A stretch of DNA of 64,000 bases from an uncultured Gemmatimonadaceae bacterium. GTDB taxonomy: Bacteria; Gemmatimonadota; Gemmatimonadetes; Gemmatimonadales; Gemmatimonadaceae. The notes beneath the pieces were generated by a model. It saw nothing but the letters and a program-made list of their open reading frames with translations, was not told the DNA's origin and ran no database searches. Shown here in pieces: positions 10,452-26,084 of the stretch. Each line of letters begins with the position of its first letter. Position 1 is the stretch's first letter. The stretch lies in the NCBI GenBank assembly GCA_963740355.1, contig CAVUDW010000002.1:2144001-2208000 (forward strand). The letters run 5' to 3'. The position numbers and the translations under genes were made by a program.

Positions 10452-11510
10452 ATGACAAGTTCCCGAGAAGTAGCACGATCGCTGACGCTCGATGCCGTTG
10501 GCGATGGGCAGCGCCTTGACCTGATCGTGGCCGCGGCCACCGATCTCTCCCGGACGCAGGCGGCGACGCTGATCGCGACCGGGATGGTGCAGGTTGACGG
10601 CAAGCTGCAGAAGGCGGGGTATCGCCCGACACCTTCCCAACAAATCAACGTCACCATCCCGGCACCACGCGGGATCGACATCGTCGGCGAATCCCTCCCG
10701 GTTGCCGTCGTCTTCGAGGACGAACACCTGCTCGTCGTCGACAAGGCCGCCGGAATGGTCGTCCATCCCGCGCCCGGCAACTGGACCGGCACCCTTGTCC
10801 ACGCGCTCGTCGGGCGAGGCGGTGAGCTCTCCTCCGAAGCCGGCGACGAACGCGCCGGAATCGTGCACCGACTCGACAAGGAAACCTCGGGCCTGCTGAT
10901 CGTGGCGAAGACCGATCGGGCCCACCGACTGCTCTCCGCCGCGCTGGCGGCACGCCGGATCAGTCGCCGCTATGCGGCGCTCGCGTGGGGCCACCTCCGT
11001 GAGGATCGGCAGACCGTCGAGGGCAACATCGGACGCGATCCGAACAATCGGCATCGCATGGCGCTGGTCACGACCGGCAAGCCGGCCCGCACCGACATCG
11101 ACCGCCTCGCGCGCTTCGACGGCGGCGACCTGCTGCGCTGCAAGCTGCACACGGGCCGCACCCACCAGATCCGTGTGCACCTGTCCTCGATCGGCCATCC
11201 CGTGATGGGAGACGATACCTACGGCGGTGGCGGTGGACGGCGTGTGACCGGGCTTCCAGCGGGGCGTCATGCTTTGCACGCTGCGGCGCTGCGGTTCCTG
11301 CACCCGATCACCGGGGAATGGCTGGCCCTGCGGTCGCCCCTTCCCGCCGATTTCGATGCGGCCGTGCGCGCCGTGGCCGGGGCGCACCAGCCCCCCGCCG
11401 ACGCCAACCTCCTCGAATTCTACGGTTTCTGGACCGACGAAGCGGATGATCAGCTCGCCACCGCCAACCAGCACGCAAACCAGCACGCCGACGAGCTCGC
11501 CGACGAGTGA
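10452..11510 (+). CDS. rluD: RluA/RluD family pseudouridine synthase with S4 domain
   Basis: N-terminal S4 domain, KAAGMVVHP, GIVHRLDKETSG, TGRTHQIRVH. Confidence 0.93.
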   Translation: MTSSREVARSLTLDAVGDGQRLDLIVAAATDLSRTQAATLIATGMVQVDGKLQKAGYRPTPSQQINVTIPAPRGIDIVGESLPVAVVFEDEHLLVVDKAAGMVVHPAPGNWTGTLVHALVGRGGELSSEAGDERAGIVHRLDKETSGLLIVAKTDRAHRLLSAALAARRISRRYAALAWGHLREDRQTVEGNIGRDPNNRHRMALVTTGKPARTDIDRLARFDGGDLLRCKLHTGRTHQIRVHLSSIGHPVMGDDTYGGGGGRRVTGLPAGRHALHAAALRFLHPITGEWLALRSPLPADFDAAVRAVAGAHQPPADANLLEFYGFWTDEADDQLATANQHANQHADELADE

Positions 11511-11940
11511 CGCGGCCCGGGCCGAGCCAACGCGCGGCCCGCGCGTCATGCTGCTCACCGCCGGTGGGCACACGGTGGCGATGGCGGCGACATCCGCGCG
11601 CGAAGTGCTGCCGCTGACGGCGGCGATTCGGTTGCCCGCTGCGCCTGAGTTCGTCTGCGGGGTAGTCAATGTGCGGGGCACCCTCGTCCCGCTCGTCGAT
11701 CTCGGTCGCCTCCTGCAGGCGGAGCCCGCCAACCCGGCTGGATGGGTGGTGACGCTCGACCTCGGAGGCCGACGGTGCGCCCTGGCGGTGGACTCGCTGC
11801 CGGTGCTGCGCGCCGCCGATGCGCCCCCCGGCGCACGCCCGACCAGTCATGCCTACCTGCAAGCCGAGGTGCGTGTGGCGGGAACCGCGCTGCCGCTGCT
11901 CGATGTGGATGCGCTGGCCGACGACATCCTGCTCCAGTAA
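11446..11940 (+). CDS. cheW: CheW coupling protein (divergent)
   Basis: LPAAPEFVCGVVNVRGTLVPLVDLGRLL, ALAVDSL, LLDVDAL. ATG 11446 overlaps rluD by 65 nt; the alternative ATG 11548 falls inside the first predicted beta strand. Confidence 0.85.
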   Translation: MISSPPPTSTQTSTPTSSPTSDAARAEPTRGPRVMLLTAGGHTVAMAATSAREVLPLTAAIRLPAAPEFVCGVVNVRGTLVPLVDLGRLLQAEPANPAGWVVTLDLGGRRCALAVDSLPVLRAADAPPGARPTSHAYLQAEVRVAGTALPLLDVDALADDILLQ

Positions 11941-11941
11941 G

Positions 11942-11961
11942 TCCACGCGACGACGCGTGGA
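11942..11961 (+). other. Intergenic stem-loop upstream of cheY
   Basis: TCCACGCG-ACGA-CGCGTGGA, a perfect 8-bp stem with no U tract. Confidence 0.5.
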
Positions 11962-11979
11962 GTCCCCAAGGATCACCAC

Positions 11980-12342
11980 ATGAGTCATCGCGTTCTGGTG
12001 TGTGACGACGCTCTCTTCATGCGTACGCTCGTCGGCGACATCCTGCAGCAGGCAGGCTTCTCCGTCTGTGGCCAGGCCGAAACCGGTGCACAGGCCGTCG
12101 CACAGTACAAGGCGCTCAAGCCTGACCTCGTGACCATGGACATCGTCATGCCCGACATGGGTGGCATCGACGCCGTCAAGGAGATCACGAGCTGGGACCC
12201 GAACGCGAAGGTCGTGATGTGCAGCGCGATGGGCCAGCAGGCGCTCGTCAACGAAGCGCTGCAGGCCGGTGCCTCCGATTTCGTCGTCAAGCCGTTCCAG
12301 CCGAACCGCGTCATCGAGGCAGTGCAGCGCGTGCTGGGCTGA
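11980..12342 (+). CDS. cheY: Stand-alone CheY response regulator (Bacillus/Thermotoga/DifD-like)
   Basis: VCDDALFMR, LVTMDIVMPDMGG (phospho-Asp), VMCSAMGQQ, FVVKPF. Confidence 0.95.
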   Translation: MSHRVLVCDDALFMRTLVGDILQQAGFSVCGQAETGAQAVAQYKALKPDLVTMDIVMPDMGGIDAVKEITSWDPNAKVVMCSAMGQQALVNEALQAGASDFVVKPFQPNRVIEAVQRVLG

Positions 12343-12381
12343 GTCGCCTGCGGCGACATCACCGCCTGAGGACCGCTCCCG

Positions 12382-14283
12382 ATGGAGCCGCATCGAATGC
12401 TCACGCTCTTCCTCGCGGAAGGGCGTGAGCTGTTGAATCGGATGGACGCCGAGCTGCTGGTGCTCGAGCGATCACCCGATGCGCGTGGTGCGCTCGATGC
12501 CGTGTTTCGTGCGGCGCATTCGCTCAAGGGCATGAGCGCCACCGTCGCGCTCAACGACACCGCTGCCGCGCTGCATGCCGGCGAGTCACTTCTCGCTGCA
12601 GCCCGTGACAGTGGCCAGCTCGATGCGGGGCAACTCCGCGCATTGCTAGCGCTGATCGACGGCACGCGACGAGCGCTCGACGATGCTGAGCAGGGCTCGA
12701 TGCAGTCACCGTCGATGCGAGAACTCGCGGCTGAACTGGAGGCGCTCGTGCCCCGAGTGCCGGCCACGGGTGCGCCGGATCGGCTCCGTGCCTCACGCGT
12801 CGTGCAGCGTGCGACAACCGCCGTTGGCGCACGCTGGAGGGTCGACGTCGTGATCGACGCCGATGCCGCCATTCCGCAGGCGCGCGCCACCATCGTGCTG
12901 CGCAAGCTCTCGGCGCTGGCCTCGGTCGTCGCGGTGGTACCGGATGCCGACACACGCGCAGCCGACGATTGGGATCGGGCGTTCACCGTCTGGCTTGGCG
13001 ATGCGACCGCGGGATCGCCGGCGCCCCTCGATGCGGCAGCACTCGAAAACGCGACCCGCAGCGCGGGGGACATCGCCGAGTGCCACGTGGCGCGCGAGGT
13101 TGCAGCGGCGGCGGACGTCGGTGAGGCGACTGCCGCGCGCACGGTACGCATTCCGGCACAGCGCCTCGACGACCTGCTGGACCTGGTTGGAGAACTCGTG
13201 CTCGCGCGTGATCGACTGCTCCGAACCGTGGCACCGACCGCCGACGACGCCGGACAGCGCGCGCTGGACGACACCTCGCGCCTGATCATGCAGCTGCGCG
13301 ATGCCATCCTCACCAGTCGCATGGTGCCGTTGGCGCAGGTCTTCGATCGATTCCCGCGGCATGTTCGCGACACTGCGCATGCACTCGGCAAGGAGATCGA
13401 CCTCGTGCTCGAGGGTCGCGAGCTGGAAGTTGATCGATCACTGCTCGATGAACTGAGCGATCCGATCCTCCATCTGCTGCGTAATGCAGTCGATCATGGA
13501 CTCGAATCCCCAGATGACCGCCGGCTGGCGGGCAAGAGCGCGCGCGGCCGACTGGTCGTGCGTGCCGTGCGCGATGGATCGATGGTCGCGGTGACCGTGG
13601 CGGACGATGGCCGCGGTGTGGATCGCGATCGTGTCGCGGCGTCGGCTGCGGCGCAGGGCGTCGCCGGCGCAGCGGCACTGGCGCAGGATGACGGGGGCCT
13701 GCTGCAACTGCTGGCGCGTCCTGGCCTCAGCACCGCAGCCACCGTCACCGCGCTCTCGGGCCGCGGTGTGGGTGTGGACGCGGTGCTCAGTCGCGTGCAG
13801 GCGCTCGGTGGCCGCCTGGAACTCGCGACTGCGGCGGGTGAGGGCACCGCGATCACCATCCGACTTCCGCTGAGCGTCGCGATGCTGCGGGCACTGCTGG
13901 TGCGTGTTGCCGACGAGACGTACGCCATCCCGCTCACGATGGTGCAGGCGACGCACCTCGGCGACACGCTCCACGCGACAGATCGGCATGACCCGCGCGC
14001 GCCGCTTCCAGAGGATGTGGAGATCGCTGGAACGCGACTGCGCTTGGTGAGCTTGCGCTCACATCTTGGCCTGCCCCCGCGGGATGACGTTTCGGGTCAT
14101 CTGGTCGTCCTTGATGGTGCCACAGGTCGTGTGGCCTTGCTCGTGGACACCTGTGTGTCCCAGCAGGAGATCGTCGTCAAGCCGCTGCAACGCGTCCGCG
14201 GCTCGGCCTCGATGTTCAGCGGGGGCACGATCCTTCCCGACGGAACACCGTCGCTCATTCTGGACATCAACACGCTGCCCTGA
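12382..14283 (+). CDS. cheA: Chemosensory histidine kinase CheA (P1-P2-P3-P4-P5)
   Basis: Hpt FRAAHSLKGMS, a P2-like segment, RLDDLLDLVGELV, N-box HLLRNAVDHG, DDGRG, SGRGVG, and P5 ending GGTILPDGTPSLILD. Confidence 0.96.
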   Translation: MEPHRMLTLFLAEGRELLNRMDAELLVLERSPDARGALDAVFRAAHSLKGMSATVALNDTAAALHAGESLLAAARDSGQLDAGQLRALLALIDGTRRALDDAEQGSMQSPSMRELAAELEALVPRVPATGAPDRLRASRVVQRATTAVGARWRVDVVIDADAAIPQARATIVLRKLSALASVVAVVPDADTRAADDWDRAFTVWLGDATAGSPAPLDAAALENATRSAGDIAECHVAREVAAAADVGEATAARTVRIPAQRLDDLLDLVGELVLARDRLLRTVAPTADDAGQRALDDTSRLIMQLRDAILTSRMVPLAQVFDRFPRHVRDTAHALGKEIDLVLEGRELEVDRSLLDELSDPILHLLRNAVDHGLESPDDRRLAGKSARGRLVVRAVRDGSMVAVTVADDGRGVDRDRVAASAAAQGVAGAAALAQDDGGLLQLLARPGLSTAATVTALSGRGVGVDAVLSRVQALGGRLELATAAGEGTAITIRLPLSVAMLRALLVRVADETYAIPLTMVQATHLGDTLHATDRHDPRAPLPEDVEIAGTRLRLVSLRSHLGLPPRDDVSGHLVVLDGATGRVALLVDTCVSQQEIVVKPLQRVRGSASMFSGGTILPDGTPSLILDINTLP

Positions 14284-14915
14284 TGCTGGCTATCCGCGAT
14301 GTGCGTAGTCTGAACGCCGAGCAGCTCGACGCGTTGCGTGAAGTGGCCAACATCGGCGCCGGTCACGCTGCCACTGCGCTCTCGACCATGACCGGGCAAT
14401 CGATCATGATCAAGGTGCCCACGGTCACCATCGCGCGACTGGATGAGGTGCCCGGGCACGTGGTGGCGAATCCTGAGGATGCCGTCGCCGTGGTGCTGCT
14501 GCAGATGCTGGGCGACCTCACCGGTCGCGCCTTGCTCGTCTTTCCCGAGTACACGGCCTGTCGCCTCGCGGAAATGATGTTGCAGCGGCCGCGTGGTTCA
14601 TCGCCGACGATCGCGCTCCTCGAGCAGAGTGCGCTGAAGGAGTGCGGCAACATTCTCAGCGGCGCCTACCTCAATGCGCTCGCAGATTTCATGCACCTGA
14701 TGCTGCTGCCGTCACCGCCGACGCTGGCCGTCGACATGGCCAGCGCCGTGCTCAGCTCCGCTTTCCTGCAGTTCGGCGATGGTCGTGACGTCGTGTTCTG
14801 CGTCGAGAGCGAATTCCAGATGCGCGACGATGGCGAGTCGCTGCGCGGCTACTTCCTGCTCCTGCCCGACATCGGATCGCTGCAGAAGATCCTGCACGCG
14901 GTCAACCGCGCCTGA
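14283..14915 (+). CDS. cheC: CheC family CheY-P phosphatase
   Basis: Two E-x2-N active sites: DALREVANIGAGHAATALS and SALKECGNIL. Confidence 0.93.
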   Translation: MLAIRDVRSLNAEQLDALREVANIGAGHAATALSTMTGQSIMIKVPTVTIARLDEVPGHVVANPEDAVAVVLLQMLGDLTGRALLVFPEYTACRLAEMMLQRPRGSSPTIALLEQSALKECGNILSGAYLNALADFMHLMLLPSPPTLAVDMASAVLSSAFLQFGDGRDVVFCVESEFQMRDDGESLRGYFLLLPDIGSLQKILHAVNRA

Positions 14916-14937
14916 TTTTCGCAGTCCAGAGATTCCT

Positions 14938-17415
14938 ATGTCGGTGACCCCGCAGTCGGTGCCAGTGTTGTCGATCCGTGAGACGGATCGGCTGCGCGCG
15001 ATCGCGCGCCGGGTGCCTGCGGGCAACGCCGGCGCGCAGAACAACTGCGGTGTCATGCTCGCCCGTCGCAGCCTGGCGCATGAAGCCGCGGCCTGCTTCG
15101 AGCGCGCACTCGATGTCGATGCGCGCATGACGCTGGCGGCGCAGAACCTGCAGCAGCTGGCCGCGCGCACCACCGTCGATGCCGAACGCGTCAAGCTGCT
15201 CACGGACACGCTTCGGCAGCAGCCGCACGATGTCGGCACGGCGTTGGCGCTTGGCAAGTGGCACGCGCGCCTCGGTCGACCGGCCGATGCCGCCACCGTC
15301 CTTGGGGAGCTGCTCGACCGGTCACCGGATGACCTGACCGCGCTGCGCGAGATCGCCCTCGTCGAACAGGCGCTGGGCTACCCCGACCGTGCATCGGCGT
15401 GGCTCGACCGCGCGCTTGCGCTCGCGCCGAACGACGTCTCGCTGCACGCACTCTCCGGCGAAATTCTCTATCGCCGCGGCAAGACCGAGGCCGCCAAGCG
15501 CGCGCTCGAGCGTGCACTCGAGATCGACGAGTCGGCCGCCTGGCCGCAGCACCTGCTGGCGTTCGTGCTCGGTGACATGGGGCAGCTGGAGGAGGCGCAG
15601 GCCGCAGCGCAGCGTGCGTTGCAGCTCGATCCCAACCTCGCGCGCGTCGACATGAACCTGACGCTCGACGCGCGGCCGCTGAAGCCAGTGCCGCGCGCCG
15701 CCGGCGACAGCGATGGCCGCGCTCACCTCACCCTCGGCGTGGCCTACCGCAACACCGGCTACTTCGATCAGGCCCTCGCCGAGTTCGAGACGGCACTCAA
15801 TCGCGGTGAACCGGCCTCGCAGGTGTGGACGGCGGTGGCAGAGACGCGGTTGATGCGCGACGAGTGGGCACTGGCCGCCGCGGCATATGCCGACGCGGCC
15901 CGCGCCACGCCAGGCGCCAGCGCACCGCTCGTGGCGCGCGCGGCGGTGTTGGTGCGGAATGGCGATCTCGCGGATGCGCGCCAGGCAATCGAGCAGGCGC
16001 TCGGCTGTGACGGCGACACCGGCAGCGCACAACTGGTGCTCGGCGTGCTCGAGGCGCTCGAACAGCATCCCGTCGAGGCCCTCACGGCATTCCAGCGTGT
16101 GCGCGGGACGTCACGCGTGGAACTCGCTGCACGACTGAACGCGGCCTGGGTGATGCGACAGCTCGGCAGGCATGCGGAGTGCCTCGAAGGATTCCGTCGC
16201 GTTACGGAGGCCGATCCCCAAAATGCGCGCGCGTGGATCGGTGTCGGTGTTGCATTCAGCGAGCTGCGTCGCCTGCACGAAGCCTGCAGTGCCTTCGAGC
16301 GAGCCGTGACGCTGGCGCCGGAAAGTGCTGATGCGGCGTACCACCTCGCCTTCACGCTCTCGCAGCTCGGTCGGTATCAGGATGGTGTGCGTGCGATGAA
16401 GCGTGCCATGAGCTTCGAGGATGAGTTCGCGCCATTCCGGTTCCTGCTCGTACTCGAACCGGAACTGCCGGATTTTGTGCTCGAAGTCGTCGCCAACGAC
16501 GCCGTCACCGGTGACGCCATGGCGCTCATGATGCTCAGTGGAGCGCCGCGTCCGAACGTGACATCCGAGCAGAGCGTCGTGCTCGCGGAGCAGACGCCCG
16601 CACACCCGATGCGTGCCGCACTCGCGCCGATCGCTGACGCGGACAAGAAACGCACGCCACTGGGTGCGTGGGTCGCGCTCCGTCGCGGAGGCACGCCGGT
16701 GTCGCAGACCGGTGTCAATCATCGCGTCACTCGCCGCACGCCGGCGATCCCCTTCGTTCGTGTCACCGGATCCAGCTTGCCGCCGGTGAGTGCACCACGT
16801 GACACCGCGCCGATGCGCGCCGTTGGGCCGTCACCGATCGCACCTGCCATCGTGCGGAGTGCGGAAAGTGCGCTCCGAACCGCGCTGGCCGGCGATCCCG
16901 ATCTGGCACAGGTCCGCGTCGGCCTCGCGGCGTTGCTGCGTGAGGATGGTCGTGTGCAGGACGCGGAGCAGGAGTTGATCCGCGCTTTGGAGAGTGTGCC
17001 GACGTTCCATGATGCCGCACGTGCACTCGCCGAACTGCGCGTCGACATGGGCCGGCCGAGCGACGCCATGCAGGCCTTGGTGCGTCCGCTCCGCGCCAAC
17101 CCGCGTGATGCCGACCTGCTGGTGGCACTGGCGGAAGCGTTGCTCGCGCTTGGCCGCGAAGAGCAGGCGATGTCCGCCATCTCGCGCGGCGCCGCGGTGT
17201 CGCCGGATCACGCCGGTGTACGCACCTTGCAGGGCTATCTCGCGCTGCGTGCGGGACGTGAAGCCGAGGCGATGCAGCACTGGCGCGTGGCTGCAGTCTG
17301 CGCCACTGATGATCGCTGGGGCACACGGGCGCGACTCGCGCTGGCGGAACATGACGACATCGATGTGCCGCAGACGCCGGTCACGCTGGATTCCGTGCGA
17401 CTGGTGAAGGGCTGA
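14938..17415 (+). CDS. Large cytoplasmic TPR protein with internal Pro/Thr-rich linker
   Basis: Many TPR units (e.g. AHLTLGVAYRNTGYFDQALAEFETALNRG). No signal peptide seen. Confidence 0.85.
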   Translation: MSVTPQSVPVLSIRETDRLRAIARRVPAGNAGAQNNCGVMLARRSLAHEAAACFERALDVDARMTLAAQNLQQLAARTTVDAERVKLLTDTLRQQPHDVGTALALGKWHARLGRPADAATVLGELLDRSPDDLTALREIALVEQALGYPDRASAWLDRALALAPNDVSLHALSGEILYRRGKTEAAKRALERALEIDESAAWPQHLLAFVLGDMGQLEEAQAAAQRALQLDPNLARVDMNLTLDARPLKPVPRAAGDSDGRAHLTLGVAYRNTGYFDQALAEFETALNRGEPASQVWTAVAETRLMRDEWALAAAAYADAARATPGASAPLVARAAVLVRNGDLADARQAIEQALGCDGDTGSAQLVLGVLEALEQHPVEALTAFQRVRGTSRVELAARLNAAWVMRQLGRHAECLEGFRRVTEADPQNARAWIGVGVAFSELRRLHEACSAFERAVTLAPESADAAYHLAFTLSQLGRYQDGVRAMKRAMSFEDEFAPFRFLLVLEPELPDFVLEVVANDAVTGDAMALMMLSGAPRPNVTSEQSVVLAEQTPAHPMRAALAPIADADKKRTPLGAWVALRRGGTPVSQTGVNHRVTRRTPAIPFVRVTGSSLPPVSAPRDTAPMRAVGPSPIAPAIVRSAESALRTALAGDPDLAQVRVGLAALLREDGRVQDAEQELIRALESVPTFHDAARALAELRVDMGRPSDAMQALVRPLRANPRDADLLVALAEALLALGREEQAMSAISRGAAVSPDHAGVRTLQGYLALRAGREAEAMQHWRVAAVCATDDRWGTRARLALAEHDDIDVPQTPVTLDSVRLVKG

Positions 17416-18557
17416 TGGCACTCGAGGGCGCACTCCGCGATCTGGGCCTCGCTGAAGTGATTCAGCTGCTGGCTGGCGGACGACGCACGGGCGCACTGCG
17501 CGTCTCCGGCGGTGCTGGCGCGCGCGGCGCCATCCTGCGCTTCGTCGATGGCGCGATCGCGGCAGCGCGGTGGGATGATGAGCCCGAACCGTTGCTCAGC
17601 GCCTTGTCGCAGTCAGGCCAGATCGACGCCGATGATCGCAGTGCGGCGGCGCGGTGGGCCAGCGAGCAGTCGCCGCCACGATCCTTGGTCGATGGGCTGG
17701 TCGAAACCGGGTGCATCACCACGCGCACACGCGACACGGTTGCACGACGGCTCATCGATGATCTCTGCTTCGAGCTCACCACGTTCGCCGAAGGCACCTT
17801 CTCGTTCAACGACGGCGAGAAGGCGAGTGCATTGGAACCCACCACCAATCTCAACCTCTCCGGCGAAGAACTCTTCCTCGATGCCGCTCGCCGGCGCGAT
17901 GAATGGCCGGCGATCGAATCGCGAATCGGGTCGCTCGGCGCCGTGCCGGTGGTCTGTGATTGTGATGCCGACGGTGAGCTGGCGGTGCCGGCCGACGGGT
18001 GGCGCGTGCTGTCGTGTGTGGATGGCTGTCGCACCGTGCGCCAGGTGGCCTCTGCCGCCGGCATGCGGGTGTTCGAGACCGCGCGCTGGATATCGCGCTG
18101 GACTGCACTCGGCGCACTCACCACCGACGCGCGCGCCACCACGGCCGAGGATGGCGATGCGATGGCTGGCGTGGCGCAACTCACCGCGCAGGCGCGCCGT
18201 GCCTTGGCGGAGTCGCGGTTCGAGGTGGCCCTCGCTGCGGCCCGAACCGCGATTGGTCATGCGCCGCGCAGCGCCGCCGCCCACGTCCTCGCGGGTCGCG
18301 CACTGCTCGGCCTCGGGCGCACCGAGGACTGGGCCGAGGAGGTCCGCGTCGCGGTGCAGCTGGACCCGCTCCTTCCCGAGGCGCAGGAGCAGTATGGGTA
18401 CGTGGCGGCACGGAAGGGCGAATACGCTGCCGCACTGAACGCGTGGGAGCACTATCTTGAGGCAGCACCGACTGCGCCGGACGCGGCCAGGGTGCGAATC
18501 GCTCGCGATGCTGCGGCGCAACTCCAGGAACTGATCTCCGCACATGCCGGCAGCTGA
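17415..18557 (+). CDS. DUF4388 (PatA-N/PATAN-like) domain plus C-terminal TPR
   Basis: MALEGALRDLGLAEVIQLLAGGRRTGALRV...EGTFSF...LFLDAARRRDEW, a winged-helix-like segment (VDGCRTVRQV), then TPRs. Confidence 0.85.
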   Translation: MALEGALRDLGLAEVIQLLAGGRRTGALRVSGGAGARGAILRFVDGAIAAARWDDEPEPLLSALSQSGQIDADDRSAAARWASEQSPPRSLVDGLVETGCITTRTRDTVARRLIDDLCFELTTFAEGTFSFNDGEKASALEPTTNLNLSGEELFLDAARRRDEWPAIESRIGSLGAVPVVCDCDADGELAVPADGWRVLSCVDGCRTVRQVASAAGMRVFETARWISRWTALGALTTDARATTAEDGDAMAGVAQLTAQARRALAESRFEVALAAARTAIGHAPRSAAAHVLAGRALLGLGRTEDWAEEVRVAVQLDPLLPEAQEQYGYVAARKGEYAAALNAWEHYLEAAPTAPDAARVRIARDAAAQLQELISAHAGS

Positions 18558-19287
18558 CGACATTCGCCGTTGGAGCAACGAACTCGCCACCGACCCGCAA
18601 AGCCTTGCCTTTGCGGACCTCGCCGAGGCGTTGCGCCAGCAGGGAGACCTCGAAACCGCCGAGCGATTGGCGATCCGGGGACTCGAGCGGCACCCCACCC
18701 ACGGTCCGGCGCTCAACGTGCTCGCGCGCATCGCCGAGGCGCGTGGTGATCTGAACGCGGCCGCGGCGTATTGGGAGCGCTCGCGTCAGCACAATCCGAC
18801 GCCTACCTCCGGCGCCGCCAATGGCAGCGCGCCGTCACCACGCACGAACGGGTTCGGTGAGGCCGCCGCCACCGGAGCCAGCCGCGTGACCGGTGCCGCC
18901 TATCCAACGGCCAGTTACGCGGCCGTGCCGAGTTTTTCTGCGACGCTCGCCACCCCTGTCAGCCGACCGGAAGTGGTGCGCTCGCTCGTTGCCGACGCCG
19001 ATGGCCTGCTGCTCGCCAGCCCACAGCCGAGCGATGACATGGCCGTGCTCGAGGCGATGGCGGCCGCAGTCGCCGGCGTGGGGGACGACGCCGCCAGAGC
19101 GATGAAGCACCTCAACCTCGGAACCTGGCACGCGCTGGTGCTGGAAACGGCGGGTGACTCACTCGCCCTCGCTCCGGCACCGGCAGGATCGCTGACGGTC
19201 CTCAGCGTGGCGCCGCATGTGCCGATCGGGCGCGTGCGCGCATTGCTTCGCGTGGCAACGGCGAGAGCCGCTGCCGACGGCTTCTGA
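18544..19287 (+). CDS. TPR plus Roadblock/LC7 (MglB-like) fusion protein
   Basis: N-terminal TPR pair (DPQSLAFADLAEALRQQG), a low-complexity linker, then a roadblock pattern (LVADADGLLLA...LNLGTWHALVLE...VPIGRVR). Confidence 0.75.
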   Translation: MPAADDIRRWSNELATDPQSLAFADLAEALRQQGDLETAERLAIRGLERHPTHGPALNVLARIAEARGDLNAAAAYWERSRQHNPTPTSGAANGSAPSPRTNGFGEAAATGASRVTGAAYPTASYAAVPSFSATLATPVSRPEVVRSLVADADGLLLASPQPSDDMAVLEAMAAAVAGVGDDAARAMKHLNLGTWHALVLETAGDSLALAPAPAGSLTVLSVAPHVPIGRVRALLRVATARAAADGF

Positions 19288-19298
19288 GAGACCACGCC

Positions 19299-19643
19299 AT
19301 GGCGCAATACGACCTCGTGGTCGATGAACTGATGCACACCGCCGGTGTGCACGCCGCACTGATCGTCTCGCGTGCAGACGGCATCGTGGTGGATGGAAAC
19401 GTGCACATCGGGACCGACGCCGATGCCATCGCTGCCCTCGCCGCTCGCCTCTACGGCCGCGCGGCGCAGGCGGCGACCGCAGCAGACGGGACCGAGCCGG
19501 GATTTCTGCACCTCGAAGGCGAGCGGGGCAGGGTCTGCTGTGTGCCGCAAGGCGACCTGCTGCTGGTCACGGTGGCAGAACCATGGGCGAACCTCGGCCT
19601 GCTCCGCCTCACCATGCGGCGGCTCGCGCAGAGCCTCGGCTGA
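19299..19643 (+). CDS. Roadblock/LC7 (MglB-like) protein
   Basis: 114 aa with GVHAALIVSRADGIVV...LHLEGERGRV...LLLVTVAEPWANLGLLRLTMR. Confidence 0.88.
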   Translation: MAQYDLVVDELMHTAGVHAALIVSRADGIVVDGNVHIGTDADAIAALAARLYGRAAQAATAADGTEPGFLHLEGERGRVCCVPQGDLLLVTVAEPWANLGLLRLTMRRLAQSLG

Positions 19644-19833
19644 GCTCGGTTTCTGGCTCGTAGATGAGGTCGGCAAAGGGCTCGTGGCTGAGCTCGGCGC
19701 GATGTATACGGAAGTCTGCACGACGACGCGGCTGAGGCGTGCCGCGCGGAATCGTTCGGGATCGATCTGTGGCAAGCAGCCTCAAGTGCCCAATCCGGTA
19801 GGCCAGTCGTCGTTGGCTGGACACCGCAGACTC

Positions 19834-21753
19834 ATGAAACTCGATCAACGCCTCCGCTTCGATACCTTCGTCACAGGCTCGTCCAATCGCCTCGCTGTCG
19901 CCGCTGCCAAAGCGGTGGCCGATGCGCCAGGCGTCCTGTACAACCCGCTGTTTGTGTACGGCGCGTCTGGCCTCGGCAAGACGCACCTGATGCATGCGGT
20001 GGGCCACTCCGCCAAGGACAAGCAACCGTCCCTTGGCGTCGAGTACGTCGCGCTCGACGACTACATGGAGGAATTCCATCAGGCGTTGCAGGGCGGTCGA
20101 CTGGACACCTTCAAGAAGCGATACGAGTCCGCCGGCGTCCTGCTCCTCGACGACGTGCAGTTCCTTACGGGGCGCGCAGAGGTGCAGGGTGAATTGCTGC
20201 GCCTGTTCAACGTGCTCCAGGGACGCGGCACGCAGATCGTGATGACCAGTGATCGGCCACCCGATGAGATCACCGATGTCGCCGACCGATTGCTCACGCG
20301 CCTCACCGGCGGGCTGATCGTCGATGTCGGCATCCCGGACTACGAAACGCGTGTGGCCATCCTGCAGAAACTGCAGGGAGAGCGTGCGTCGCGATTCCGC
20401 GATGGTGTGCTCGAGGAACTCGCGCGTGTCGACTTCTCGAACATCCGTGAATTGCAGGGCGGTCTCAATCGGCTGCTCGCGCATCAGGGATTGAGCGACT
20501 CGGCGATCGGCGTCTCCGATGTCCGTCGCCTCGTCGGTGCCCGCGCCACGCCGCTCGCCAACGCGGCCATCTACGGCGAGATCGAGCAACACGAACGCGA
20601 CAACGACACGATCGACTACGACACCTTCGTGCAGGAAGTCGCGACGGCCGTCGTCGAACAGGTCGAGGAGTGGCGCGTTCGACTCGCCGATGCCGCCGCA
20701 CGGTGGCGCGCCGAGGGCATCAGTGTTGCCGTCCTCGATCGTGCGCTGCAACTGCGCGAGGCGCCGGACGTGGAGGGATTGCTGGCGACGTTCGGTGCTG
20801 CCGTCGAATACCTGCGCGATCTCGAGCGCCAGGGTTCCGCCGCCGATACCACGCTGTCTGGGCATGCGATCTTCCGTGATCCGGAGCGTGTGAAGGAAGC
20901 GCATGCACTGGTGCAGCAGGCCGTCTCGTCGATCGAGCCGCCACCACGCCCAGATCCGGCCTTCATCTTCGGCACCCTGCACGAGGGACGGGCCAACCAG
21001 CTCGCACTCCGCGCAGCACGCGCCGTTGTCGAGGCGCCGGGTACGCAGTACGTCCCCCTCGTCATCACCGGCCCATCGGGCAGCGGCCGTACGCACTTGC
21101 TGCATGCCATCGGCAATGCACTGATCGACGCTGGAGTGCAGACGGTCGCCTGTGTCTCCGCGGCCACGTTCGCCGAACAGCTCATCACCGCGCTGCGCGA
21201 AGGTGCGGTCGAGAAGTGGCGCGCGCGGTACCGCAATGCTGGCGCACTGCTTCTCGATGACATCGAGGCGGTGGCGGGCAAGGAACGCACGCAAGACGAA
21301 CTCTTCCACCTGTTCAATGCGTTGCAGAGCGCAGGACGACAGGTGGTGCTGACGTCGAGTGTCCCACCGAACCAGCTCGCAACGCTCGAGGACCGACTGC
21401 GGACACGATTCGCGCAGGGCCTGATCGTGGAGCTTGGCAGCCCGGACACCGCACAGCGCGTGGCCGTCATCACCAGCGTCTTCCACGCCCATCATGCGCG
21501 CGTCGATGACGCCGTGGTGGCCCAGCTCTCGGATCGTCCCGCGCGGTCGATTGGCGACGTGATTGCCACCGCACGTCGATTGCACGCTGCCGCGACACTT
21601 GCCAACGCGCCCATTACCGCAGCCTTCGTGGCAGCGGAGTTGGACGGTGCCGTCGCACCGCGCCGCGGACTGAAACACCTCATGGGTGACCCGGAGAATT
21701 TCGTGCATCGCTGGCCCGACCTCACGGCGCGTCTCAGCGAGGACGCTGACTGA
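19834..21753 (+). CDS. Tandem DnaA/Hda-family AAA+ protein lacking the DnaA DNA-binding domain IV
   Basis: Module 1: FDTFVTGSSN, YNPLFVYGASGLGKTHL, LLLDDVQ, TSDRPP, DRLLTRL, NIRELQG. Module 2: GPSGSGRTHLL, LLLDDIE, TQDELFHLFN, DRLRTRF. Confidence 0.9.
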   Translation: MKLDQRLRFDTFVTGSSNRLAVAAAKAVADAPGVLYNPLFVYGASGLGKTHLMHAVGHSAKDKQPSLGVEYVALDDYMEEFHQALQGGRLDTFKKRYESAGVLLLDDVQFLTGRAEVQGELLRLFNVLQGRGTQIVMTSDRPPDEITDVADRLLTRLTGGLIVDVGIPDYETRVAILQKLQGERASRFRDGVLEELARVDFSNIRELQGGLNRLLAHQGLSDSAIGVSDVRRLVGARATPLANAAIYGEIEQHERDNDTIDYDTFVQEVATAVVEQVEEWRVRLADAAARWRAEGISVAVLDRALQLREAPDVEGLLATFGAAVEYLRDLERQGSAADTTLSGHAIFRDPERVKEAHALVQQAVSSIEPPPRPDPAFIFGTLHEGRANQLALRAARAVVEAPGTQYVPLVITGPSGSGRTHLLHAIGNALIDAGVQTVACVSAATFAEQLITALREGAVEKWRARYRNAGALLLDDIEAVAGKERTQDELFHLFNALQSAGRQVVLTSSVPPNQLATLEDRLRTRFAQGLIVELGSPDTAQRVAVITSVFHAHHARVDDAVVAQLSDRPARSIGDVIATARRLHAAATLANAPITAAFVAAELDGAVAPRRGLKHLMGDPENFVHRWPDLTARLSEDAD

Positions 21754-23378
21754 TGGCGATTCGTGGTAGCCTCAAGGAAGCGAGCTTTCCCGATGTGCTC
21801 CAACTGCTGGCACTGGGACAAAAATCCGGGTGTCTCAGCATCGTGGACGGCACGAAGTTCGGCTCGGTGTTCTTCCAGAACGGCAAGATCTCCTTTGCGG
21901 CGATCGTCAATCGACGCGATCGACTTGGCGACTCGCTCGTCAAGCGCGGGCACATCACCAAGGACCAGCTCGAGGATGCACTTCGTGCGCAGCTGACACA
22001 CCCGGGCCGCCGCGTGGGCGAGTTGCTGGTGGAGCTGGGCTTCGTGGCGCGCGAAGTGGTCGAGAAGGAACTGCGATCACTGGTGGAGGACGCGGTGTTC
22101 TCGCTCTTCACCTGGACGCAGGGAATCTGGACCTTCGAGCCCGACGTCCATCCCGATGGTCGTCAGCTCATGACGGCCATCAACCCTGAGTCGCTGCTGA
22201 TGGAAGGCGCGCGACGCACCGACGAGTGGGCGCTCGTCGAGCGACGGTTCCCGACCTTCGATCTCGTCTTCGAGATGGACGCGGCACGTGCAGGCCAGTC
22301 CACGCCGCTGAGCGGCGAGCTGGCCGAGGTCGCGCACCTGCTCGACGGCCGGCGCACCATTCGCGCCGTGATCGAACGCTCCGGCCTCGGTGAGTTCACG
22401 GTCGGCAAGGCGCTCTACGAGTTGGCGATGCAAGGGTTGCTGGTGCAGGTCACCAACGCCGAGACGGTGCGCAGCGACGACTCTGACATCGGCGGCACGA
22501 CGGCCGAGAAGGCGCTCAAGATGGGACTCGCGCTTGCCAAGGCCGGCATGATCGAGGACTCCGCCCGCGAATTCCGTCGTGTCGTCGAAGCCTCGCCCAA
22601 CGATCCGATTGCGCGGCACCAGCTCGGGCTGCTGGCGCTCAAGCAGGGGGAGTGGGACGATGCAGTGGGCTGGCTGGAACCGTTGGCGCAGCTGGACGAT
22701 GCGTCGTCGACGATGCTCCATCATCTGGCTCTCGCGTACGAGGGGCTGGGTCGCGAGCTTGATTCCGCACGCACGCTCGAGCGCGCCGCACGGTCGGGTG
22801 GGATGTCATCGCCGCAAGTCGAACTGTCGCGCGCGTTGCACGCCTTCCAACTCGGCGACTACGTGCGCGCCGACGCGATGCTCGCTTCCGCCCGCACCCG
22901 GTTCGACGGCGATGCGCCACCGGCCGTCTGGTTTCACTACGCGTCTCTGGTGGCCGCGGCGCGCGATGATGCCGATCAGGCGCAAGCGCTGCTCGAGGAA
23001 GGGATTCGCACACATCCCTCGGTCGGTGTGCTGCACGCCAACTACGCGGCACTGTTGCTCACACGCGGCGCGCTGACGGCGGCTGCGGCAGCTGTGGAGC
23101 GCGGGATGCTGCACGCCGCCAATCTCGCGCCGTTCCAGAAGACGGTCGGCGACCTCGCGTATCGTGTCGCGCGTTTCGACGATGCCATGGAAGCGTATCA
23201 GCGCGCCGTGCGGCTCGAACCGTCACTCGGTCCAGATGTGTACCTGAAGCTCGGTGAATTGCGGTACCAGCGCGGTGAGACACTTGAATCGCAGCGTTGC
23301 TGGCAACGCGTGCTCGAACTCGATCCAGGCAATCGTCAGGCGCAAGTCAGCCTCGATGCCATTCGACGTGCCTCATGA
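21753..23378 (+). CDS. DUF4388 (PATAN-like) domain with MshEN-type insertion plus TPR repeats
   Basis: MAIRGSLKEASFPDVLQLLALGQKSGCLSI, RLGDSLVKRGHITKDQLEDALRAQ, WTQGIWTFE, LLMEGARRTDEW, then C-terminal TPRs. Confidence 0.87.
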   Translation: MAIRGSLKEASFPDVLQLLALGQKSGCLSIVDGTKFGSVFFQNGKISFAAIVNRRDRLGDSLVKRGHITKDQLEDALRAQLTHPGRRVGELLVELGFVAREVVEKELRSLVEDAVFSLFTWTQGIWTFEPDVHPDGRQLMTAINPESLLMEGARRTDEWALVERRFPTFDLVFEMDAARAGQSTPLSGELAEVAHLLDGRRTIRAVIERSGLGEFTVGKALYELAMQGLLVQVTNAETVRSDDSDIGGTTAEKALKMGLALAKAGMIEDSAREFRRVVEASPNDPIARHQLGLLALKQGEWDDAVGWLEPLAQLDDASSTMLHHLALAYEGLGRELDSARTLERAARSGGMSSPQVELSRALHAFQLGDYVRADAMLASARTRFDGDAPPAVWFHYASLVAAARDDADQAQALLEEGIRTHPSVGVLHANYAALLLTRGALTAAAAAVERGMLHAANLAPFQKTVGDLAYRVARFDDAMEAYQRAVRLEPSLGPDVYLKLGELRYQRGETLESQRCWQRVLELDPGNRQAQVSLDAIRRAS

Positions 23379-23903
23379 CCGCGCTGGCGGCGCCGCCGTA
23401 CGCGCCTGACTCGCGCGCGACAGTCGAGGCCGACGTGCTGACTGTCGTGATGGGCAAGGCTGGTGTCGCGCATGAAGGCACGCTGTTGCGAACCGTTGGC
23501 CTGGGATCATGCGTCGCCGTGATCATCTTCGCGCCGCAGCAGCGCCTTGCTGGCCTCGCGCACTGCATGTTGCCTGATCGCGAGGACGCGGATGACCCGC
23601 CGTCGCGATTCGTCGACACCGCCGTGCCCGCGCTGATCGACGAACTGCAGGCCGCAGGGAGCATCCGCGCCGTACGCTGCGGCACTGGTCGGCGGCGCCT
23701 CGATGTTTCCCGGCGTGTCCACCGGGTTCGTGCGCGACATCGCCGGAAGCAATCTCGAACGTGCGCGTGCCGCGCTGGCCGCCGCCGCCGTGCCGGTTCG
23801 TGTCGAAGACGTCGGTGGCAGCGAGGGACGCTCGGTGCTCGTCGATCCCGCCACCCAACGCGTCCGGGTGCATACGATGCGCGGTGGCGACCGGTGGCTG
23901 TGA
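23375..23903 (+). CDS. cheD: CheD deamidase / CheC activator, interrupted by a +1 frameshift at about 23657-23659 (probable sequencing error)
   Basis: First frame: TVGLGSCVAV, GLAHCMLP, RFVDTAV. Second frame: LVGGASMF, EDVGGSEGRSV. Deleting one G of GGG restores a 175-aa protein. Confidence 0.85.
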
Positions 23904-24003
23904 TGACCGCCCTCCGTCCGATACTCTTCATCTCGATGTCTTCGGCCGCGCTCGACAGGGCGACGGTAGTGCCGCCCCGTGGCGGTAGTCCTCTGGAGCG
24001 TTC

Positions 24004-25104
24004 GTGACGATCCTGCCCCCCTCAGCGGAAGACGTGCTGAGCCCCCTGCGTGCGCAGGTGGACGATCTCGCGCGCGACCTCACCACCGACGCCGCAGCGG
24101 CGGACCACGGTGTCCTGCTCAAGCAGCGCATCTTCCTGCTCCACCGCGCCGTGGAACAGCACGCACAGCTGATCGAGCAGTTGCAGGGTGAAGTCCGCTC
24201 GCTCGTCGATGGCTGGAAGGGGCGGTTTGCGTCGGGCGGCGGCTCGTCGCTCACCCCGCTCAGTTCGGCGGCCATTTCGTCGACGCCAAGGGCGCCGGCA
24301 GCACCCGCCGCCGCGCCGACCCAGAGCCGGACCGCAGCGCCGTCGGCCACCGCTGTCGTCGCGGTGCCGGAGCCCCCTCCGACCGCTGTCGCTGCCACCG
24401 TACCCGCGCCAACGCCGGCCGTCGAACACACCAACGGATTCGCGACCGGGGCCTCGCGTACGCAGATGCCCATGGCCGTGCCAGGCCAGCCGCGCGTGAT
24501 CGACGAGTTGAACGCATCGACCTTCGTGGAGCGCGGCTGGAGTCGGATCGCGACCGGCGACTACATCGGCGCCGAGGAGGCCCTCGAAAAGGCCCTTGCC
24601 CTCAACCCGGGTGACGCGCATGCGGAGACGCTGCTCGGGTGGGCCCAGATGTCGCAAGGGAAGTTCGACTCCGCGATGGCGCTCTTTCAGCAGGTGCTCG
24701 ATCGGGTGCCCGACCACGCCCTCGCGCACATCAACGTCGGCTACGTCCTTTTTCGCCGTCGACAGTTCGATGAGGCCGAAGAGCATCTCGATCGCGCCAT
24801 CGCCCTCGATTCGGATCGAAAGGCGACGTTATACGCGCACTACTATCTGGGGCTGGTGCATTTCGAGCAGCAGCGGTACGCCGAGTCGATCGGTGCCCTG
24901 CTGCGGGCGATCGAGCTGGGTCCGAACCTGATCGAGGCCCGATTCGAGCTGGGCCGGGTACTCTGGTTTGCTGACCGCACCGACGACGCGATCGCCGCGT
25001 GGCGCAAGGGCGCGGAGGTGAACAAGTTCAACCCATGGAGTGCTCGCTGTCGCGATATGCTGGCGACCATCGCCGACGGGGGCGCGCCGACGCGCGTGGC
25101 CTGA
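24004..25104 (+). CDS. TPR protein with N-terminal coiled coil and Ala/Pro-rich linker
   Basis: GGAG before GTG 24004. C-terminal TPRs (TLYAHYYLGLVHFEQQRYAESI, PNLIEARFELG). Confidence 0.85.
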   Translation: MTILPPSAEDVLSPLRAQVDDLARDLTTDAAAADHGVLLKQRIFLLHRAVEQHAQLIEQLQGEVRSLVDGWKGRFASGGGSSLTPLSSAAISSTPRAPAAPAAAPTQSRTAAPSATAVVAVPEPPPTAVAATVPAPTPAVEHTNGFATGASRTQMPMAVPGQPRVIDELNASTFVERGWSRIATGDYIGAEEALEKALALNPGDAHAETLLGWAQMSQGKFDSAMALFQQVLDRVPDHALAHINVGYVLFRRRQFDEAEEHLDRAIALDSDRKATLYAHYYLGLVHFEQQRYAESIGALLRAIELGPNLIEARFELGRVLWFADRTDDAIAAWRKGAEVNKFNPWSARCRDMLATIADGGAPTRVA

Positions 25105-26084
25105 GCAGTTTCTGGTGGGCACTGCTGTGGTGCGCGTCGGTACTCGTGGCGTGGGCATCACCGGTCACTGCGGCACCACCCGGTGCCCTCCGTCTCGATC
25201 GCGGCCGCTTCACGGTGGTCCACTACAGTGACGATGCCACGCTGGCGCATGCTGCGCTGAACGCCGCGGCGTCACGCGACACCTTTCCCTGGTTGCCGCG
25301 GGCGTCGACACGGATCGTGATCATGGTCGCGCCCGACGCCGCCACCTTTCGCGAGTGGGCGGGACAGAGTGCGGCCAGCTGGGCGGCAGCGGTCGCGTTT
25401 CCCGACCAGCACCGCGTGGTCGTGCAAGGCGGGAAGGCACCCGCCGACGCCGGAGATCCGACCCAGGTGCTGCGACATGAACTCGCGCACGTCGCCTTGC
25501 ACGACTATCTCGGTGATCTCCCACCGCGATGGTTCGACGAGGGCTACGCCAGCTTTGCTGCGGGCGAGGAGCGCATGGATGGCTTCGTCTCGACGAACCT
25601 CGCGCTGGTGTTCAGAGGGATGCCAGCACTGGCTACGCTCGACACGATGATCGGCAGCCCGCGTCCCACGGAGGCGCGCGCCGGCTACGCGCTCGCCCTG
25701 CGCGCCGTCTCCGACCTCGCCGCCATCGACACGCAGCGCGGTCTCGGGCCGATGTTCGTCGCGTGGAAGGAGCGCGGCAGTCTCGACCTCGCCATGCGAC
25801 GCGCGTTCGCGCTCACCTCGGATGATTTCCAGCGCGGTTGGCAGCAGCGCGCGCGGTGGCAGTTCGCGTTTCTCGCGCTGGCGGCCGACTCGGCGATCAC
25901 CGGGAGCGTGCTCCTGCTTGGGCTATGGCCGATGTACCGCCGCCGACGGCAGGCCCAGCGAGATCGCCTGGAGGCGATGCGCGAGCGGGAAGCCATCACC
26001 GAGAGCGCTGCCCGGAGTGCTGCCCTCGACGTCCTGCTGCACGCGATCGGGCCTGAGCGACCCCGAGCTGGCCCCGATGCTTGA
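24999..26084 (+). CDS. Membrane-anchored zinc metallopeptidase (clan MA, gluzincin-like); true start probably near 25100
   Basis: HELAH (HExxH) followed by WFDEGYA. Hydrophobic N-terminus and a C-terminal TM followed by RRRR. Confidence 0.75.
   Translation: MAQGRGGEQVQPMECSLSRYAGDHRRRGRADARGLSSFWWALLWCASVLVAWASPVTAAPPGALRLDRGRFTVVHYSDDATLAHAALNAAASRDTFPWLPRASTRIVIMVAPDAATFREWAGQSAASWAAAVAFPDQHRVVVQGGKAPADAGDPTQVLRHELAHVALHDYLGDLPPRWFDEGYASFAAGEERMDGFVSTNLALVFRGMPALATLDTMIGSPRPTEARAGYALALRAVSDLAAIDTQRGLGPMFVAWKERGSLDLAMRRAFALTSDDFQRGWQQRARWQFAFLALAADSAITGSVLLLGLWPMYRRRRQAQRDRLEAMREREAITESAARSAALDVLLHAIGPERPRAGPDA

Follow-up and report, generated by a model that had tools for sequence, protein, structure and literature searches.

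Several described bacterial systems share parts with the locus considered here. The Frz pathway of Myxococcus xanthus, acting with MglA/MglB (and MglC/RomR), brings together a non-flagellar chemosensory (Che) pathway, an MglA-family GTPase, Roadblock proteins and tetratricopeptide repeat (TPR) effectors; in Myxococcus, MglA and a TPR protein stimulate pili (PMC7519303), and mglA is encoded away from its signalling partners (PMC4316618). The cyanobacterial PixG/PixH (Tax1) proteins and other regulators of the PatA type place a PATAN domain downstream of a CheA/CheY pathway and act on the type IV pilus motor (10.1101/2021.06.11.447907, PMC11181946), to which PATAN response regulators bind in Synechocystis (10.1101/2021.06.11.447907). 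The MshEN domain, defined by tandem 24-residue motifs (PMC5013675), has its known position at the N-terminus of secretion and pilus ATPases such as Vibrio cholerae MshE and Thermus PilF. The locus analyzed in this work spans positions 11446-26084 of a 64,000-nucleotide stretch (the window) of contig CAVUDW010000002.1, from the genome of an uncultured Gemmatimonadaceae bacterium (GCA_963740355.1), and combines a Che core, TPR proteins, Roadblock/LC7 proteins, two PATAN (DUF4388) proteins and an ATPase with two DnaA-type AAA+ modules, hereafter the double-DnaA ATPase. On balance, we lean towards viewing it as a Che pathway that is not flagellar, has a Ras-like polarity module at its core and takes an input from cyclic diguanosine monophosphate (c-di-GMP). 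It would steer a polar process, most likely type IV pili, and has been trimmed in the genus of this bacterium.

The cluster is real and conserved across Gemmatimonadota, the phylum to which the labels of close homologs also assign this bacterium. A search of 201 genomes, sampled evenly from the phylum, recovered the double-DnaA protein in 130 and did not find it in the other 71; four of the carriers (G157, G182, G057 and G097) are unpublished genomes, the exclusion of which leaves 126 of 197. By family, the carriers comprise 26 of 38 genomes in f1 (the genome of the window, also a carrier, is not counted), 93 of 96 in f2, 3 of 3 in f3 and 4 of 4 in f4, with sparse or no representation in f7 (2 of 23), f6 (0 of 11) and f10 (0 of 13). 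Comparison of the window proteins with 20 kb around the double-DnaA gene in 20 genomes from five families (the order-level loci) shows that 17 of these loci carry cheY-cheA-cheC upstream of the double-DnaA gene in the order seen in the window. The same 17 carry the PATAN-TPR, PATAN(MshEN)-TPR and CheD genes in window order, at 25-79% identity, with the Roadblock, TPR and peptidase genes likewise placed in most of them. Two of the remaining three loci are cut by contig ends, while the third, L022 from family f7, is a minimal version without che genes, limited to rluD, the ATPase and the PATAN(MshEN)-TPR protein together with the peptidase and a sigma-54 response regulator. As this arrangement recurs in relatives down to 30-40% protein identity, it lies far beyond chance, and the view of the first-pass annotation, which had been made from the window sequence by itself, that these genes form one unit is upheld by the synteny. 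CheY is the best-conserved protein of the cluster, with identities of 71-79% across the order and 88-99% within the genus. In its full form the cluster begins with cheW-cheY-cheA-cheC, followed by the genes for a TPR protein, PATAN-TPR, TPR-Roadblock, Roadblock, an MglB-like Roadblock and an MglA-family GTPase, and continues with those for the double-DnaA ATPase and PATAN(MshEN)-TPR, then cheR-cheD-cheB-cheW, and finally those for a TPR protein and an HExxH peptidase.

In a scan of a genome collection for the tandem ATPase, which covered the best 80 of at least 600 candidates and does not amount to a systematic test, the long matches (1.6-2 kb) all came from Gemmatimonadota records, including some labeled "Longimicrobiales", an order of Gemmatimonadota. 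None of 56 single-domain loci, namely the other 55 of those best 80 (three from Gemmatimonadota records) and the genome's own dnaA locus, had a second AAA+ region within 3 kb. In the ESM Atlas, the clusters of this ATPase with 593-663 residues are listed as commonest in Gemmatimonadota.

Set against the described systems, the cluster departs from each in specific ways. Whereas the Myxococcus partners are dispersed, the Gemmatimonadota genes lie in one cluster, to which are added two PATAN-TPR proteins devoid of a receiver domain, a c-di-GMP motif and the double-DnaA ATPase; the window itself, unlike both Myxococcus and the full cluster, lacks the MglA and MglB-like genes. In cyanobacteria the PATAN domain is fused to a receiver, whereas here it is fused to TPRs, with CheY as a separate protein and one of the two PATAN domains bearing an MshEN-type insertion. 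The latter shares with MshE and PilF the tandem RLGxx..G..L..Q-type motifs, scoring over the NCBIfam cut-off, but is situated inside the PATAN domain; further, its first motif has a histidine at position 11 and the spacer looks to be six residues rather than five. As for DnaA and Hda, each module of the ATPase has the fold and motifs of DnaA domain III, but the two are joined by a new helical domain, domains I/II and IV are absent, a predicted TPR-docking tail is present, and the gene has signaling genes as neighbors. Full-text literature searches found no paper describing the cluster or the tandem ATPase, in line with the initial remark that no characterized system of this composition was known. 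Group 1 MglA proteins have been noted to occur in Gemmatimonadetes (PMC4316618, Wuichet and Sogaard-Andersen 2014), and some group 1 and group 5 mglA genes to lie near PATAN genes (PMC4316618, citing Makarova et al. 2006); the main text of that paper has no occurrence of "DnaA" or "TPR", and its supplementary table S2 may list the neighborhood.

The window does not hold the full cluster. Pfam scans of the extra open reading frames (ORFs) of the relatives, together with tblastn searches, identified the additional genes listed for relatives in the table below. The relatives' GTPase matches Pfam Arf (E 2e-5) and has TVPGQ in place of DxxG, which can be read in light of the Thr78 feature of MglA (PMC3000849), while their MglB-like Roadblock matches NF052242 (E 9e-13, under the cut-off). 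In the window, tblastn gave no match to the MglA-family GTPase, the MglB-like Roadblock, CheR, CheB or the second CheW, and all 12 loci examined from the same genus likewise lack these five. The two Roadblock proteins of the window pass the Pfam Robl_LC7 cut-off of 23 (34.6 and 46.4 bits), with no match to an MglB model. The ATPase is nevertheless found in 19 of 20 genomes of the genus at 86-92% identity, the single non-carrier genome being 81% complete. The remaining twelve genes are full length in 12 of 12 genus loci, at 57-99% identity and with their overlapping junctions kept, the exception being cheA of locus L106, whose best segment starts from residue 248. Since five genes are absent yet the other twelve are intact across the genus loci, the window cluster is a stable, genus-specific reduced variant. 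This trimmed state, with CheR, CheB and the second CheW missing and cheD broken, had escaped the first-pass annotation. Its polarity theme is strengthened by the MglA-family and MglB-like genes of the relatives, which adjoin the ATPase gene; conversely, the notion that a DnaA-derived ATPase stands in for a small GTPase fails as an ancestral scheme, because the usual cluster holds both and the GTPase was lost only in this genus. A second MglA-like gene was present elsewhere in the genome in all five relatives checked, and the sole MglA-like gene of the present genome is of this second type (G000:C2:1409958-1411070), with an adjoining Roadblock gene, about 750 kb away. The genus is also marked by a change of the Walker A lysine to arginine in the second ATPase module, seen in the window and 12 of 12 genus loci, whereas alignment A1 has a lysine there in 24 of its 32 rows. 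This substitution marks the genus just as the absence of the GTPase does; since only one lineage is involved, their joint occurrence is not evidence that one caused the other.

An AlphaFold2 model of the double-DnaA ATPase, built with the 32-row alignment, contains two confident AAA+ modules (mean predicted local distance difference test score, pLDDT, 85; predicted template-modeling score, pTM, 0.47), and a Foldseek search places it on domain III of Bacillus subtilis DnaA (8bv3) with a template-modeling score of 0.94, a root-mean-square deviation of 1.5 Å and 44% identity. Both halves were compared with 55 true DnaA domains from many phyla, in which 69 columns are at least 90% conserved. The N-terminal half retains 47 of these 69 columns, including Walker A, Walker B, sensor I, the box-VII arginines and sensor II, and lacks near-universal DnaA residues in the helix after Walker B (114, 119, 121-124) and at position 98. 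The C-terminal half retains 26 of 69, with a decaying sensor I, and both halves keep the two box-VII arginines. This pattern suggests that the N-terminal module is catalytic and the C-terminal one degenerate, albeit with a preserved arginine-finger box, and that the protein may be a built-in pseudo-dimer with one working ATP site. Inspection of the C-terminus reveals a tail with the consensus EKxVWxWPxxxxRLxEE, in which W627 is invariant and E621, P628, R633 and E636 are at least 90% conserved.

This tail finds a predicted partner in the product of the next gene, which is the best-conserved large protein of the unit (61% mean column identity over 21 sequences). It consists of one PATAN domain, split by an MshEN-like insertion at residues ~53-110, and a TPR superhelix at residues ~250-541. 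Residues 53-110 hold two RLG..G..L..Q-type motifs (RLGxxLVxxGxI...Q), conserved in the 21 sequences; residues 57-105 match NF053729 ("MshE-related c-di-GMP motif") with 50.4 bits against a cut-off of 38, and residues 55-110 match the motif-bearing region of Thermus PilF (chain 6f8l_G, residues 302-358, E 9e-17). A c-di-GMP input through this MshEN-type motif, as had been suggested at the outset, is therefore plausible from the sequence. A complex of ATPase residues 278-639 with the whole PATAN(MshEN)-TPR protein was predicted alongside three controls, and scored 0.79 as against 0.00 for the best control; among solved complexes, 116 of 157 attain this mark, as against 2 of 215 mismatched pairs. 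At least 78% of the contacts agree between runs, with a partner pLDDT of at least 80, and the predicted interface lodges tail residues 614-637 in the TPR groove at 293-496. The tail had been flagged as conserved before the complex prediction was run. Binding of the tail to the TPR groove is hence supported, as a predicted interaction, for this one pair.

The Che part of the cluster is unconnected with flagella, as the first reading of the sequence had hinted. FlhA occurs in 54 of the 201 genomes, at the same rate of 27% among carriers (35 of 130) and non-carriers (19 of 71), and 95 of the 130 carriers have no FlhA match, among them seven near-complete genomes with the full cluster (G040, G131, G142, G138, G191, G023 and G069). 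Family f10 shows the reverse, with FlhA in 13 of 13 genomes and the double-DnaA ATPase in none of the 13. The present genome does have FlhA, and it has other groups of che genes (cheW, cheR, cheD, cheB) at G000:C2:186306-231433, G000:C3:146558-151396 and C3:294159-295547; the first of these, about 40 kb away from flhA, probably serves flagellar chemotaxis. By Pfam, CheA, CheW and CheY are all present in the window unit, and the ten genes for methyl-accepting chemotaxis proteins (MCPs) in the genome are all outside the window. The survey of neighborhoods bore out the conserved synteny and the adjoining mglA, with flagella proving unrelated and pili, as judged by PilT, uninformative. PilT-family genes are found in 194 of 201 genomes, with typically three to five copies in genomes with the cluster versus one or two in those without (medians of 4 versus 2 in f1); in f7, one carrier has 4 copies and the other 2, as against at most 1 in the 21 remaining genomes.

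These observations allow a mechanism to be sketched. Receptors encoded elsewhere would drive CheA, which would phosphorylate the stand-alone CheY, with CheC resetting it. Phosphorylated CheY would then act on the two receiver-less PATAN-TPR proteins, as can be inferred from the PATAN-receiver fusions of the PatA type, and the second of these would additionally sense c-di-GMP via its MshEN-type insertion, while its TPR groove would accommodate the C-terminal tail of the double-DnaA ATPase. The ATPase might operate as a pseudo-dimer, with a catalytic N-terminal module and a degenerate C-terminal module contributing its arginine-finger box to the one working site. The output would be a pole-specific process, for which the placement or activity of type IV pili is the best candidate. 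In the present genus, the MglA/MglB pair, CheR, CheB and the second CheW have been lost and cheD seems to be decaying, with twelve genes left intact; because those genes are lost, the pathway would now run without adaptation and without its own GTPase. It may instead draw on the MglA pair from another part of the genome, or depend on the ATPase and the two Roadblock proteins that are left. Of this picture, the gene content, its conservation, the lack of a tie to flagella, the motifs and the pattern of loss come directly from the data and the docking of the tail is a prediction, whereas the step from CheY to PATAN, the division of labor within the ATPase and the pilus or polarity output are inferred.

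A more specific proposal, which we put forward tentatively and consider unlikely to hold in full, is that the double-DnaA protein is a DnaA-derived signaling ATPase of a new kind, whose built-in pseudo-dimer, tethered by its tail to a c-di-GMP-sensing PATAN-TPR scaffold, would form a nucleotide-driven polarity switch or timer. As the MglA/MglB pair is lost in this genus and two Roadblock proteins remain beside the ATPase, the switch here would perhaps be ATPase-based, with Roadblock proteins regulating an AAA+ ATPase in place of a small GTPase.

Several points weigh against the polarity pathway proposed above. PilT cannot discriminate carriers because it is almost universal in the phylum; the trend in its copy number is confounded by relatedness, so that the pilus link is weak, and the cluster itself contains no pilus, MCP or other output gene. 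The link between CheY and the PATAN proteins is drawn from domain fusions in other phyla. The pseudo-dimer is putative, since a pTM of 0.47 leaves the relative placement of the AAA+ modules unfixed. The passing score of the docking may partly reflect likeness, because TPR-peptide complexes are common among solved structures, and the interface columns are only slightly more conserved than the other TPR columns (0.65 versus 0.59, one-sided P = 0.04). Finally, five lost genes, a broken cheD and the lysine-to-arginine change in the second Walker A might be signs that the genus is losing the pathway.

The first of the alternatives, although itself rather unlikely, is that the cluster controls another process of the pole or envelope, such as gliding, polysaccharide export, a change of cell shape or cyst formation, with the HExxH peptidase as an effector released or activated by the ATPase. 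The peptidase is a gluzincin (clan MA), given the HExxH motif and the downstream glutamate ligand: although it scores 24.9 with Pfam, short of the cut-off of 32.4, the HELAH motif starts at residue 160 and H160, E161, H164, W178, F179, E181 and G182 are invariant in 24 orthologs. Such an effector would also fit the retention of the peptidase with the ATPase/PATAN pair in the minimal, che-less f7 locus, and the lack of a pilus gene in the cluster; however, nothing links the peptidase to any substrate. Its orthologs end in a hydrophobic stretch followed by an arginine-rich run (consensus RRRRDR in alignment A3), which may be a membrane anchor.

An alternative that we consider quite unlikely holds that the double-DnaA protein regulates replication or the cell cycle, capping or remodeling DnaA filaments or stimulating ATP hydrolysis by DnaA in the manner of Hda, so that the cluster would couple environmental and c-di-GMP signals to initiation or division. 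The first module, with its close superposition on B. subtilis domain III, is 43% identical to the genome's own DnaA; and both halves have the arginine-finger box. The protein passes the DnaA equivalog model TIGR00362 (470 bits against 343.9), and several public records name it "chromosomal replication initiator protein", which may make genomes of the phylum seem to hold two dnaA genes. The second module matches the Hda model TIGR03420, but with 186.1 bits it stays under the cut-off of 194.8, and the two modules do not conform to the single-module architecture of Hda. Against a role in replication, neither DnaA domains I/II (DnaA_N) nor the DNA-binding domain IV (Bac_DnaA_C) has a Pfam match at E <= 0.01, the protein beginning at the domain III boundary and the model ending in a short tail, and the N-terminal half has lost the near-universal DnaA residues noted above. 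Further, as the protein was not found in 71 of the 201 genomes, it is not a general replication factor, and its gene travels with the PATAN-TPR and MglA-family genes, not with dnaA/dnaN. The annotation as a replication initiator is likely a mis-annotation. The location of the cluster just upstream of mraW and the dcw genes in loci long enough to show it, on which alone the cell-cycle role suggested by the first-pass annotation rests, does favor this alternative (mraW was seen in 8 of 20 loci at the order level and in 11 of 12 within the genus), but mraW is not near the L022 locus.

It is also improbable that the cluster in this genome is a non-functional remnant in decay, as might be suspected from the five missing genes, the arginine in the second Walker A and the state of cheD, which is absent in 4 of 12 genus loci and intact in 8 of 12. 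With the protein of an intact relative as tblastn query, the two hits in the window, at 23438-23668 (query residues 13-91) and 23685-23900 (query residues 98-169), do not share a frame, placing the break near 23650-23685, and DNA alignment with genus orthologs points to one extra base near 23650-23680. A contig of run X1 across 23423-23688 has one letter fewer than the window, while a second contig, across 23668-23831, aligns with it without gaps; the break may thus be a real frameshift or an assembly error. Against general decay, the twelve other genes are intact throughout the genus as described above, and both the N-terminal ATPase motifs and the tail motif are unaltered. Moreover, in contigs of other samples, 28 of the 33 listed differences in the ATPase gene fall at third codon positions (there are 131 further differences beyond those), and a metagenome contig from another study runs from the end of the Roadblock gene through the gap into the start of the ATPase gene, with 13 differences over 394 nucleotides (nt). 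The remaining possibility, an ordinary flagellar chemotaxis operon of the CheC/CheD type with accessory scaffold genes by chance, is very improbable in view of the carriers without FlhA, the f10 genomes and the separate che group near flhA, even though CheA and CheC best match models from flagellated or archaellated organisms and this genome has FlhA.

With the polarity pathway retained as the favored reading, the layout of the window can be considered in its particulars (Table 1). Domain calls were made on the window ORFs with Pfam and NCBIfam models, and ORF coordinates were taken from the window sequence. All 13 ORFs at 11446-26084 proved real, co-directional and of the proposed domain content, and the stop/start overlaps claimed at 14283, 17415, 21753 and 23375 are present. 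The gene order stood as first listed, with amendments: the start of the large TPR gene, a non-coding interruption of 190 nt between the Roadblock stop at 19643 and the double-DnaA ATG at 19834, the broken cheD, and a single split PATAN domain rather than two in the 21753 protein.

Table 1. Features of the cluster in the window, modules of the double-DnaA ATPase (residue numbers) and genes held by relatives
Feature	Position	Strand	Evidence or remark
cheW, coupling protein	11446..11940	+	Pfam CheW E 1.7e-20; present in 12/12 same-genus loci
cheY, single-domain response regulator	11980..12342	+	Pfam Response_reg E 1.4e-30
cheA histidine kinase (Hpt, P2, dimerization, HATPase and CheW domains)	12382..14283	+	Pfam
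cheC, phosphatase of phosphorylated CheY	14283..14915	+	Pfam CheC E 1.2e-21
Large TPR protein, 825 residues	14938..17415	+	many TPR families; start read from sequence
PATAN (DUF4388)-TPR protein without MshEN-type motif	17415..18557	+	PF14332 E 9.3e-21; no NCBIfam match
TPR-Roadblock/LC7 fusion	18544..19287	+	Robl_LC7 E 1.6e-8 and TPR families
Stand-alone Roadblock/LC7	19299..19643	+	Robl_LC7 E 3.3e-12; no NCBIfam match
Non-coding leader, ~55-60 nt, directly 5' of the double-DnaA gene	19775..19833	+	genus alignments
Double-DnaA ATPase, 639 residues	19834..21753	+	Pfam Bac_DnaA E 2.6e-100, two stretches
PATAN-MshEN-TPR protein	21753..23378	+	PF14332 E 3.5e-36; NF053729
cheD, split over two reading frames	23375..23903	+	tblastn with intact relative; Pfam CheD only E 0.004
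TPR protein	24004..25104	+	Pfam
HExxH metallopeptidase, gluzincin type	24999..26084	+	Peptidase_MA_2 E 2e-5, under cut-off; motif HELAH then WFDEG
Further TPR protein between peptidase and mraW	26623..28350	+	Pfam TPR
ATPase: AAA+ module 1	residues 1-236		complete ATPase motifs
ATPase: disordered linker	residues 237-277
ATPase: helical middle domain	residues 279-367
ATPase: AAA+ module 2	residues ~380-607		Arg in place of Walker A Lys
ATPase: conserved C-terminal tail	residues 614-637
Relatives: MglA-family GTPase	directly upstream of ATPase gene		19/20 order-level loci
Relatives: MglB-like Roadblock	before GTPase		17/20 order-level loci
Relatives: intact CheD	after PATAN(MshEN)-TPR gene		18/20 order-level loci
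Relatives: CheB	after PATAN(MshEN)-TPR gene		16/20 order-level loci
Relatives: CheR	after PATAN(MshEN)-TPR gene		15/20 order-level loci
Relatives: second CheW	after PATAN(MshEN)-TPR gene		13/20 order-level loci

The start of cheW is uncertain, its ORF being open from 11269 and overlapping the end of rluD. CheA matches the NCBIfam CheA models (E 3.7e-105) under their equivalog cut-offs, and CheC scores 168 bits with CheC_Thtogales, under the cut-off of 250. The likeliest start of the large TPR protein is the ATG at 14938, 22 nt past the cheC stop, and residues 1-825 read from it are 71-85% identical within the genus. The two PATAN proteins score 74.5 and 124.4 bits with PF14332, as against a cut-off of 25, and are the only PATAN proteins of the genome. 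For the TPR protein at 24004, residues ~150-366 are conserved across the order and the N-terminal part is matched only within the genus: the match begins at residues 32-190, mostly ~140-170, in the order-level relatives and covers residues 1-366 in those of the genus. Upstream, the cluster is flanked by ylmE, divIVA, a phosphorylase gene, ileS, a dksA-like gene, lspA and rluD, and downstream by the further TPR gene, mraW and the dcw genes up to ftsZ. Of the order-level loci, 17 of 20 have a match to this further TPR gene, and those that include both the peptidase gene and mraW have it between the two; within the genus it is matched in 11 of 12 loci, the twelfth being cut by a contig end. It is a conserved neighbor whose membership of the unit is uncertain.

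The leader upstream of the ATPase gene is near-invariant across 13 species of the genus, unlike the variable rest of the gap, and occupies the position that, outside the genus, is taken by the MglB-like and MglA-family genes of relatives. It shows no resemblance to the upstream DNA of the order-level relatives. A structured RNA at this site is not supported, as the leader has no Rfam match and none of the 14 predicted pairs shows a compensatory change across the genus alignment. The leader may have arisen, as a promoter or operator, once the GTPase gene had been lost. Beyond the cheD stop, a 34-codon ORF at 23903-24007 overlaps it by TGATG, and the stretch at 24004-24460, encoding the first ~150 residues of the next TPR protein, has no counterpart outside the genus. 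Both stretches coincide with the place of cheB and the second cheW in relatives and so could be left over from the deletion of these genes. A terminator-like hairpin with a T-run is seen at 14897-14910, at the extreme end of cheC; it may mean nothing, since the total of terminator-like sites in the region (4) is under the 6.6 expected from shuffled sequences. The accompanying promoter scan of the region found no sigma-70-like site and was uninformative.

Gemmatimonadota are common bacteria of soils and sediments with almost no molecular cell biology. The contribution of this analysis is threefold: a reduced variant typical of the genus, ATPase halves that have decayed in complementary ways, and a predicted docking of the tail to the TPR partner. 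The locus proposes, in a single place, the wiring of a whole system in which a Che pathway and a Ras-like polarity module are combined with a sensor of c-di-GMP and an ATPase derived from DnaA, whereas the dispersed partners of the Myxococcus model had to be tracked down by genetics. One component of the locus is missing from the systems used for comparison (Myxococcus, cyanobacterial, MshEN and DnaA/Hda): the motor domain of the replication initiator would have been recruited outside replication, in a protein that automatic annotation calls a second DnaA. Further, the full cluster, the form of this genus and the minimal ATPase-PATAN pair constitute a natural deletion series that shows how the parts of the system depend on one another.

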